Source: a virus (lineage: Duplodnaviria; Heunggongvirae; Uroviricota; Caudoviricetes). Taken from it: a stretch of 5,761 nt of DNA. The position numbers and the translations under genes were made by a program. The notes beneath the pieces were generated by a model, which saw only the letters and a list, made by a program, of their open reading frames with translations, was not told where the DNA came from and did not search any database. Positions 4,598 through 5,730 of this stretch are shown piece after piece; positions within the stretch are counted from its first letter, which is position 1, and each line of letters opens with the position of its first letter. The stretch lies in the IMG/VR virus record IMGVR_UViG_2675903559_000015, one strand, 5' to 3'.

Positions 4598-4709
4598 TAT
4601 TAGCTCCTTCTGATGCCATTCTATTTCAGGAAGGAGTGTCCGTTAAACTCAGGCTACCTCAGTCTCGTTCATTTTACTCACAGTACCGCCTCCTGAAATT
4701 TCCCCTGAT

Positions 4710-4998
4710 AAAACGCCAGACTGTTAGCCGGGTATCAGTTAGCGGGAGAAATTTTTAAATACTTCACAATTCAGGCGGTTGACTGTTGTCTGGTTTGCGG
4801 GGAGTTTGTTAAAAGAAACTGGCATGGTGAATCCCCCTGTGCGGAGGGGCAATCAGCGAGTAGGTATATGGGATAATCGCGGATTCAGGTGCTGGTACTG
4901 AATTCACCGGGAGGCACCCGGCACCATGCAATGGCACATAGCGCCACTCTCCAGCCCCTCTCCGGAGGGGCTGTTTATATTGATTTTGTCAGATGTGA
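4710..4998 (+). repeat. 289-bp structured repeat, copy C (identical to copy A)
   Basis: Direct comparison with 2463-2751; begins 48 bp after the IS600 end. Confidence 0.85.
4953..4987 (+). terminator. Intrinsic terminator at the 3' end of repeat copy C
   Basis: Same perfect 8-bp stem, tetraloop and U-rich tail as 2706-2740. Confidence 0.6.
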
Positions 4999-5005
4999 GT
5001 AAACT

Positions 5006-5037
5006 CCTTATGGACTTTGTTGTTTTAGTCCATAAGG
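5006..5037. other. Perfect 10-bp inverted repeat with 12-nt loop abutting repeat copy C and overlapping the 3' end of the minus-strand ORF
   Basis: ccttatggac (5006-5015) / gtccataagg (5028-5037). No clear U-tract on either strand. Confidence 0.35.
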
Positions 5038-5343
5038 ACATATTTGCAGAGTGCAACGGTTATTAAAGCATTCATTCAATACGTTATCTGTATTTGTAGG
5101 GCATTCCTGGCTATTTTTGATTGAATTCCAGAATGTTTTATTGAATGGTACTACGTTGTAAATGGTTACAGGTAGCACTTTGTTATTGAGCATGATGCCT
5201 GTGTGAGTCAGTGTAAATATACTTTCAGGAGGTAAGAAAGCATCCGATTGATACCAGATTATTAATTTTATTTTACTCCATATGACTGAAAAAGATATTC
5301 CGCATGATGGCTGGATAACTGTATCAATCACAATCCACTTCAT
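5008..5343 (-). CDS. Hypothetical protein, 111 aa, in AT-rich cargo island; antisense to the flanking plus-strand units
   Basis: ORF track; Shine-Dalgarno aaggaaa 6 nt upstream of the minus-strand ATG; no plus-strand ORF of comparable length in this island. No recognisable motif. Confidence 0.4.
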
Positions 5344-5603
5344 TTAGTTTCCTTGTTTATGCCTTGCTGGTGATGTTCTGAAAAGTATAAATGATATTTT
5401 TGAATGTAAACCATAGAGCAGAATTATTTTTCTGATGTTGTTTATTGTTTATTTAAATGCAGGGTGGTTTATATCTCGTCTTGTAGTTTATCCATGCATA
5501 TCTGCTTGATAATCAGGTTTTTATTTAAGGTATGGTTTTGTGTTTTTTCTGTATTACATGTCAGGTATTTTAAAGAATTATTTTTCAGATGGTGGAAAGA
5601 ACC

Positions 5604-5730
5604 ATGGCATTTAAACACTATGATGTTGTCAGGGCGGCGCCGCCGTCAGATCTTGCGGAAAAGCTGACACATAAACTGAAAGAGGGCTGGCAGCCGTTTG
5701 GTAGTCCGGTGGCCATAACCCCTTATACCC
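5604..5730 (+). pseudogene. First 42 codons of a plus-strand late-region gene (MAFKHYDVVRAAPPSDLAEKLTHKLKEGWQPFGSPVAITPYT), truncated by IS600 at 5731; recalled as resembling the DUF1737 N-terminus of prophage NanS-p-type esterases, unverified
   Basis: Hand translation from ATG 5604, with ggtggaaaga upstream; the frame runs directly into the IS600 inverted repeat. Family assignment is from memory only. Confidence 0.45.

Follow-up and report, generated by a model that had tools for sequence, protein, structure and literature searches.

A 1,069-bp segment between two IS600 copies in Shigella sonnei-type DNA, a probable remnant of a decayed lambda-like prophage

IS600-flanked prophage DNA and the locus under study

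Shigella genomes contain hundreds of IS copies, and prophage scraps bounded by such elements are routine in them. The closest described system is the IS600-flanked stx region of S. dysenteriae type 1, for which McDonough & Butterton in 1999 (Mol Microbiol 34:1058) reportedly demonstrated amplification as well as deletion by experiment. Two articles that cite this work (PMC4193171, PMC7819885) place the IS-flanked region within a defective lambdoid prophage. IS600 itself belongs to the five IS that expanded across all Shigella and has recently been most active in S. sonnei (PMC7373316), and brackets formed by two of its copies are therefore to be expected in these genomes. The second point of comparison is STnc100, a family of prophage sRNAs with a relationship to the PasD sRNAs, which are bound by Hfq; the gene for the phage sialate esterase follows directly after pasD (Zhu, Shabalina & Storz, bioRxiv 2026).

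Investigating a window of 5,761 nucleotides (the whole stretch of DNA that was analysed), we confirmed what a sequence-only reading had observed in its right-hand part, namely a segment of exactly 1,069 bp (5730 − 4662 + 1) flanked by two IS600 copies of the same orientation: a complete copy stands at 3398-4661 and the 31-bp end of a second copy begins at 5731. The contents listed at that time, a repeat, an AT-rich island and a severed gene, are all present as well (at 4710-4998, 4999-5603 and 5604-5730, respectively). Both the 31/31 match to the IS terminus and the perfect repeat of 289 bp are far above the chance expectation in 5.8 kb, and the AT-rich stretch at 4999-5603 has a GC content of 32.6%, against 48.1% for the whole window.

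The likeness to the IS600-flanked toxin cassette of Shigella, with other cargo, had already been drawn in that reading and is apt in form. Like the stx region of S. dysenteriae 1, the segment is DNA of a Shigella genome that comes from the late region of a defective lambdoid prophage, downstream of Q and the tRNAs, and its cargo has IS600 as a neighbour; in both cases the direct IS copies provide a RecA-type substrate for deletion or amplification. The two systems differ in their cargo, which is stx in the former and, in the latter, the STnc100 gene together with iraM and the nanS-p stump, and in the fact that the left IS600 of the window is derived from a different prophage. Furthermore, the dynamics reported for the stx region are experimental, whereas the window is known from sequence alone and its segment is much shorter (1.07 kb). 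The analysis presented below suggests that the 1,069-bp segment is very likely an ordinary remnant of a decayed lambda-like prophage of the S. sonnei type and not a mobile cassette.

The segment and its IS600 borders

The following features were identified in and around the segment, the identities of proteins in the window being assigned via family models (P1 and P2 are the S. sonnei-type prophages described in the next section):

2463-2751, plus strand: copy A of the 289-bp repeat, 100% identical to copy C, with STnc100 at 2546-2735
3398-4661, minus strand: IS600 copy #1, complete, 1,264 bp, 99.9% full-length identity to annotated IS600
4597-4295, minus strand: orfA of IS600 copy #1, 100 aa (Pfam HTH_Tnp_1)
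4259-3441, minus strand: orfB of IS600 copy #1, 272 aa (Pfam rve, rve_3, HTH_21)
4662-4709, minus strand: scrap of 48 bp with 3'-terminal sequence from a DUF977 gene of a prophage
4662-4670: leftmost 9 bp of the scrap, GTCTCGTTC
4671-4719, minus strand: DUF977 3' end (antisense last codons and stop codon), 49 bp, 100% identical to E. coli FDAARGOS_944
4710-4998, plus strand: copy C of the 289-bp repeat, 100% identical to copy A and to S. sonnei-type P1
4793-4982, plus strand: STnc100 (RF02076) sRNA gene of copy C, complete, PasD/STnc100 family (Rfam)
5008-5343, minus strand: iraM-like anti-adaptor gene, intact, 111 aa (NCBIfam NF007393)
5344-5603, no strand: intergenic and AT-rich (29.6% GC), separating the divergently oriented genes iraM and nanS-p; collinear with E. 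coli prophages
5604-5730, plus strand: nanS-p stump, first 42 codons, with the DUF1737 domain (Pfam DUF1737, 57 bits)
5731-5761, minus strand: IS600 copy #2, IRR terminus, 31 bp, identical to 3398-3428 and oriented as copy #1

Copy #1 has the length (about 1,264 bp), the TGAGGT-type termini and the orfA/orfB arrangement with a -1 frameshift site (A7G slippery site near 4346) that characterise IS600, and the reference elements to which it is 99.9% identical are annotated in RefSeq as 'IS3-like element IS600 family transposase'. Its IRR lies at 3398 and its IRL at 4661; the terminal inverted repeats are imperfect and start with TGAGGT (end alignment TGAGGT..CTG..ACGGACACT). What the window does not contain is a 3-bp target-site duplication, the flanks being TCC on the left and GTC on the right. 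Together with its left flank, copy #1 is 100% identical to the IS600 of the S. sonnei-type prophage P2, where the counterpart is a simple insertion with a TCC/TCC duplication, the corresponding site being empty in strain 53G. Since the left flank is that of P2 but the right flank reads GTC, the DNA on the right side must have been exchanged.

Just 31 bp of copy #2 are visible, so its full length is undemonstrable inside the window. The homologue at P1 in S. sonnei-type chromosomes is full length (1,264 bp), with 1 nt different from copy #1, and in 53G it is split by an IS1. This P1 element is flanked by ACC/CCC on the left and CTA on the right, without target duplication, and on its right side unrelated DNA (CTAATCAG...) is found where the remainder of nanS-p would stand; the flank beyond the full-length element reads CTAATCAGCTTAGCC. 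The missing 3-bp duplications at both copies indicate that both were rearranged after insertion and leave their identity as IS600 unaffected.

Copy #1 is followed by the scrap, whose DUF977 source gene is of a lambdoid early region type and whose allele is unlike the DUF977 of S. sonnei P2. Where it meets the 289-bp repeat there is a microhomology of 10 bp, AAAACGCCAG (4710-4719). Two other candidates were considered for this stretch. For 4662-4709, a frame ending in ...TPDC* had suggested the terminus of a second DUF3927 allele, which BLAST ruled out by returning the antisense DUF977 3' end; for 4662-4670, the start-codon region of the gene after DUF977 was dropped, as it found no support in the downstream sequence of five natural loci.

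The remaining cargo had been regarded as unexplained material, a label that no longer applies: STnc100, an sRNA gene, lies within the repeat, iraM makes up the core of the AT-rich island and the stump belongs to nanS-p. STnc100 of copy C matches the full Rfam model (positions 1-206) with 132.4 bits, the gathering score being 47 (E = 6e-30), and it possesses an intrinsic terminator, composed of a hairpin at 4952-4973 and a subsequent T tract; a sigma-70 promoter sought upstream of it on the plus strand gave no match. It matches the family at full length, and its slot ahead of the genes for sialate esterase and holin agrees with the synteny published for the STnc100/PasD prophage sRNAs. The difference lies in the number of copies, as the window has three within 2.5 kb, two of them identical and one 96% identical. 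Copies A and C of the repeat enclose an insert of 1,958 bp (2752-4709), which includes IS600 copy #1.

IraM is an anti-adaptor of RssB and stabilises RpoS. The protein encoded in the window scores 162 bits against NF007393 ('anti-adapter protein IraM'; cut-off 121) over residues 1-110 of 111, and its E. coli homologue is IraM in the RefSeq annotation; Pfam hmmscan of the protein found no family at E <= 0.01, and a precomputed table gives PF11183 PmrD. Prophage-borne IraM is annotated in E. coli CFT073, 042 and O104:H4, with the same gene length and the same neighbours, and the window allele differs by L74S from the E. coli allele of three reference loci, a substitution common to S. sonnei-type genomes. 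In the assembly collection, the exact IraM protein is listed for 4,016 blocks and the P2 methylase for 4,314, similar counts which are consistent with stable carriage. As the STnc100 gene and iraM are intact and conserved, both probably still work as regulators of the ordinary chromosomal kind, the former as an sRNA of the Hfq type and the latter as an anti-adaptor of RssB.

Intact nanS-p homologues encode sialate O-acetylesterases of about 617 aa with DUF1737 and SASA domains and precede a holin gene. In the window, nanS-p is severed by IS600 copy #2 and the SASA esterase domain is lost, so that the stump no longer counts as a NanS-p. Across the nanS-p::IS600 junction runs a fusion ORF of 57 aa, which is annotated in S. 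sonnei-type genomes.

Parent prophages, junctions and proposed origin

In E. coli prophages (O104:H4 type, for example FORC_069, and 042) the order is Q, (methylase), tRNA cluster, ORF108, DUF3927, STnc100, iraM, nanS-p and holin, the methylase after Q being present in the O104:H4-type prophage and missing from 042. Positions 2-2751 and 4710-5733 of the window are collinear with such intact prophages at 97-99.7% identity. The 289-bp STnc100 module is single there, whereas the window carries 1,958 bp extra (2752-4709) between two copies of it. Exact-protein look-ups led to chromosomes of about 4.8 Mb, including HE616528.1, which is S. sonnei 53G (PMC5447701). The two prophage remnants carried by these chromosomes are as follows:

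P1, cmoA/ipaH locus: Q, tRNAs, ORF108, DUF3927, STnc100, iraM, nanS-p', IS600
P2, ompW locus: Q, methylase, tRNAs, STnc100-B, (IS600), nanS-p

The window can be divided into blocks that are 100% identical to one or the other of them:

1-1841: origin P2
1773-2751: origin P1
2753-4661, including IS600: origin P2
4710-5761: origin P1

The overlap of the first two blocks stems from the switch from P2 to P1, which falls inside tRNA-Arg(TCT) at 1773-1841, a stretch identical in both prophages. Between 2751 and 2753, a filler of 1 nt (2752) connects the end of the STnc100 module to the T-stem of tRNA-Ile. This junction and the one at 4710-4719 are illegitimate, and the switch in tRNA-Arg(TCT) is homologous. 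The window thus shares with the cryptic prophages P1 and P2 of S. sonnei the identity of its blocks, the nanS-p::IS600 junction and the tRNA-side IS600 site; they are separate loci in those genomes, whereas in the window P2, P1, P2, the scrap and P1 are fused.

Positions 4710-5761 were found as a single copy, at 99.9-100% identity, in the P1 loci of 10/10 of the S. sonnei-type chromosomes listed. All ten of these P1 loci share the nanS-p::IS600 junction, as do four IMG/VR contigs, and in none of these loci and contigs does an IS600 stand left of the STnc100 module. Three k-mers are specific to the junctions of the window:

J1: TGTCAGATGTGAACTGGTTCAAATCCAGC
J2: GGCTACCTCAGTCTCGTTCATTTTACTC
J3: CCCCTGATAAAACGCCAGACTGTTAGC

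The junctions 2751/2753, 4661/4662 and 4709/4710 were absent from 5,426 complete E. coli genomes, 72,556 PLSDB plasmids, IMG/VR, JGI metagenomes and the GTDB species representatives. As no other searched sequence contains them, the arrangement may be strain-specific. The ORFs spanning the junctions had no record as exact proteins in the look-ups, and for the methylase, IraM, ORF108 and a 65-aa ORF, the matches listed (24 blocks) included only separate P1/P2 loci or E. coli prophages. That the window might be a k=31 de Bruijn contig was also considered, and appeared unlikely with a full IS600 and the exact 289-bp repeat twice inside it.

Two natural variants deserve attention. The IMG/VR contig L038 is 100% identical to positions 1-2751 and 4999-5761 of the window and lacks 2752-4709, so that the segment stands there without its left IS; the locus therefore is polymorphic. 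The polymorphism lies at the 289-bp STnc100 repeats, where it is either an insertion or a deletion mediated by the repeats; it does not lie at the IS600 pair. In the S. sonnei-type chromosome LR213449.1, the right flank of the P1 IS600 is joined via an IS600 to the left part of P2, from which it follows that IS600 copies of the P1 and P2 prophages recombine in nature. The comparison of strains for loss or amplification of the segment, which the sequence-only reading had proposed, thus yielded one variant without IS600 copy #1, but neither a deletion product between the two IS600 copies nor a tandem array in the genomes examined.

Based on these data, the segment would be what has passively remained of the lambdoid prophage P1 in its late-regulatory 'moron' region. 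Its right edge would be an old IS600 junction in nanS-p, common to the S. sonnei-type chromosomes examined, and its left edge the IS600 of the second prophage, P2, which had lost its right-hand target duplication. This P2 element would have been joined to the 48-bp scrap with the DUF977 3' end of a third prophage, and the scrap in turn to the start of the STnc100 module across the 10-bp microhomology. Accordingly, the IS600 copies would have inserted independently of each other, and the bracket would have been completed by IS-mediated and illegitimate exchanges between the resident prophages, and not by transposition of an IS600-cargo-IS600 unit; collinearity with in-situ prophages and the foreign joins at the left edge both point in this direction. 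As to the order of events, we infer either successive recombinations or a single event with multiple template switches through P2, P1, P2, IS600, scrap and P1. A passive, IS-scrambled prophage remnant is therewith the best-supported reading of the locus and very probably the right one, the sequence past 5761 being inferred from homologous loci.

Alternative readings and biological meaning

The first alternative starts from the susceptibility of direct IS600 repeats to deletion and amplification, which had been claimed for this segment before. As a statement on substrates the claim is valid, with 1 nt of 1,264 differing between the copies; it is generic, however, and no variant of this kind was seen. 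As with any direct repeats, RecA-dependent recombination between the copies may delete or duplicate the 1,069 bp, at the low rate of the background. A selected unit, in which the copy number of iraM and STnc100 varies by IS600 x IS600 recombination, as is reported for stx in S. dysenteriae 1, would go beyond this. It could draw on the long repeats (1,264 bp, ~99.9% identical), on the precedent of McDonough & Butterton 1999 as it is cited in PMC4193171 and PMC7819885, on the recombination between P1 and P2 in LR213449.1 and on a cargo of regulators, the dosage of which could matter. Nevertheless, the single copy in every listed chromosome and the lack of any deletion product or tandem array in the genomes examined argue against such a unit, as does the sole structural variant found (L038), which involves the STnc100 repeats, and we consider it improbable. 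For the broader proposal that the IS600-bounded STnc100-iraM module is variable in copy number in some S. sonnei lineage, be it via the IS600 pair or via the nested 289-bp repeats, we see a very slim chance.

A chimeric join of repeats from two prophages during assembly would account for several of the observations made above: other S. sonnei-type genomes carry the blocks, at 100% identity, in two loci apart from each other, the three novel junctions are absent from all searched collections, and with L038 an insert-free contig exists. Errors of repeat collapse, however, join sequences at shared stretches and hence do not create junctions of the kind seen in the window, two of which are non-homologous (with the 1-nt filler at 2752 and the 10-bp microhomology at 4710-4719); moreover, 39 bp belong to an allele of a third prophage. 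An artefact of this type therefore seems very improbable.

Mobilisation of the segment as a composite unit, likewise suggested earlier, would imply that the STnc100-iraM cargo travels as a transposon of 3.6 kb, with the two IS600 cooperating through their outer IRR and IRL. In favour of this, the same orientation (by which the outer ends pair as IRR/IRL, that of copy #2 lying beyond the window), the intact reading frames and frameshift site of copy #1 and the activity of IS600 in S. sonnei (PMC7373316) could be put forward. We nonetheless regard it as extremely improbable, as the outer flanks differ (TCC left of copy #1, CTA on the right as taken from S. sonnei P1) and no 3-bp target duplications match, the cargo stands at its native prophage position, 100% identical and collinear with a locus without the left IS, and contains a truncated gene and a 48-bp scrap typical of in-situ decay, and the unit was found in no second context, be it plasmids, E. 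coli genomes, IMG/VR, JGI metagenomes or the GTDB representatives searched.

Returning to the passive prophage remnant, the bracketed segment on its own is of little significance. What has been gained is that its contents need no longer be called unexplained, now that the repeat is accounted for by a known sRNA gene of prophages and the AT-rich island by iraM, and that the window provides a detailed record of reshuffling among the resident prophages of S. sonnei, comprising a crossover in a tRNA gene, one IS600-mediated join, two illegitimate joins and the duplication of a 289-bp sRNA module around a 2-kb insert. Should the module after all be variable in copy number, RpoS stability and sRNA dosage would be tuned in infection or starvation, analogous to the amplification of stx; a varying number of iraM and STnc100 copies, were it found in populations, would connect the activity of IS with the regulation of RpoS.

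The 289-bp repeat pair and its insert

The STnc100 module, a repeat carrying the gene of the STnc100 sRNA (Rfam RF02076), is present in two copies, which delimit the following features:

2463-2751 and 4710-4998: 289-bp direct repeat (STnc100 module), copies perfectly identical
2752-4709: insert of 1,958 bp between the repeats
2748-2780: join of STnc100 module and tRNA duplicate, junction 2751/2752/2753
4662-4670: nine bases, GTCTCGTTC, between the end of the complete IS600 and DUF977-derived sequence

The insert comprises a partial tRNA cluster, STnc100-B, a complete IS600 (3398-4661, minus strand) and an antisense scrap of a DUF977 gene. 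The IMG/VR contig UViG_2693429621_000002 (locus L038, 482-3995) is without this insert, and both flanks are 100% identical to the window. The sole structural polymorphism seen at the locus is marked by the 289-bp repeat pair and not by the IS600 pair, between whose members the sequence-only reading had placed a segment liable to deletion or amplification.

At the left junction, the 3' end of the module (2751) reads ..CAGATGTGA. After one additional A comes the tRNA-Ile(CAT) T-stem, with which the duplicated tRNA-cluster sequence begins at 2753 (213 bp; 2753-2965 versus 1649-1862); the CAGATGTGA motif recurs after STnc100-B (approximately 3278-3286). A breakpoint within the T-arm of a tRNA gene is reminiscent of the attachment sites used by integrases, but no integrase lies near this one (junction 2751/2752/2753). 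The nine bases beside IS600 match neither the element nor what naturally follows DUF977 at any of five loci used for comparison, and may represent filler or an unsampled allele.

STnc100 paralogues

Three full STnc100 genes lie within 2.5 kb:

2546-2735, 3030-3219 and 4793-4982: full STnc100 sRNA genes

Two of them are identical and the third is about 96% identical, and a fourth, weak match (21.8 bits, Rfam) is located at 3258-3446. A second, diverged STnc100 copy is also found in an E. coli type-2 prophage (L003, 4716-4952 of that locus); sRNA paralogues in tandem seem to be common in this prophage region.

Sequences around the tRNA genes

1-35: strong terminator-like hairpin with which the window opens, GCCGCCGAGCGGG and then a run of T
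153-1559: 65-aa ORF and N6/N4 DNA methylase
1960-2313: 108/117-aa ORF between tRNAs and DUF3927 (ATG-start version 1987-2313)

Since the hairpin is identical to the sequence immediately 5' of the tRNAs in prophages without the methylase, the 65-aa ORF and the methylase look like a module inserted between the Q-downstream terminator and the tRNAs. The 108/117-aa ORF, without a family match in Pfam or NCBIfam and frequently left unannotated, is conserved across many prophages of E. coli and Shigella, and the assembly collection has 7,259 blocks that list it. The gene at 1600-1675 is called tRNA-Met(CAT) by ARAGORN, whereas its homologue is tRNA-Ile in the RefSeq annotation; presumably, it belongs to the ileZ type, which is known in Stx phages and is modified with lysidine.

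Exchange between resident prophages

In LR213449.1 (L012 1-5428 and L015 4186-9613), the normal right-hand flank of the IS600 in P1 connects via IS600 to the left part of P2, P1 and P2 being two lambdoid prophage remnants of S. sonnei-type chromosomes, which indicates an IS600-mediated inter-prophage rearrangement across a distance of about 670 kb. In the window, the sequence switches from P2 to P1 inside tRNA-Arg(TCT) (1773-1841), a 69-bp stretch in which both prophages are identical, and phage tRNA genes thus act in this case as sites at which resident prophages cross over.
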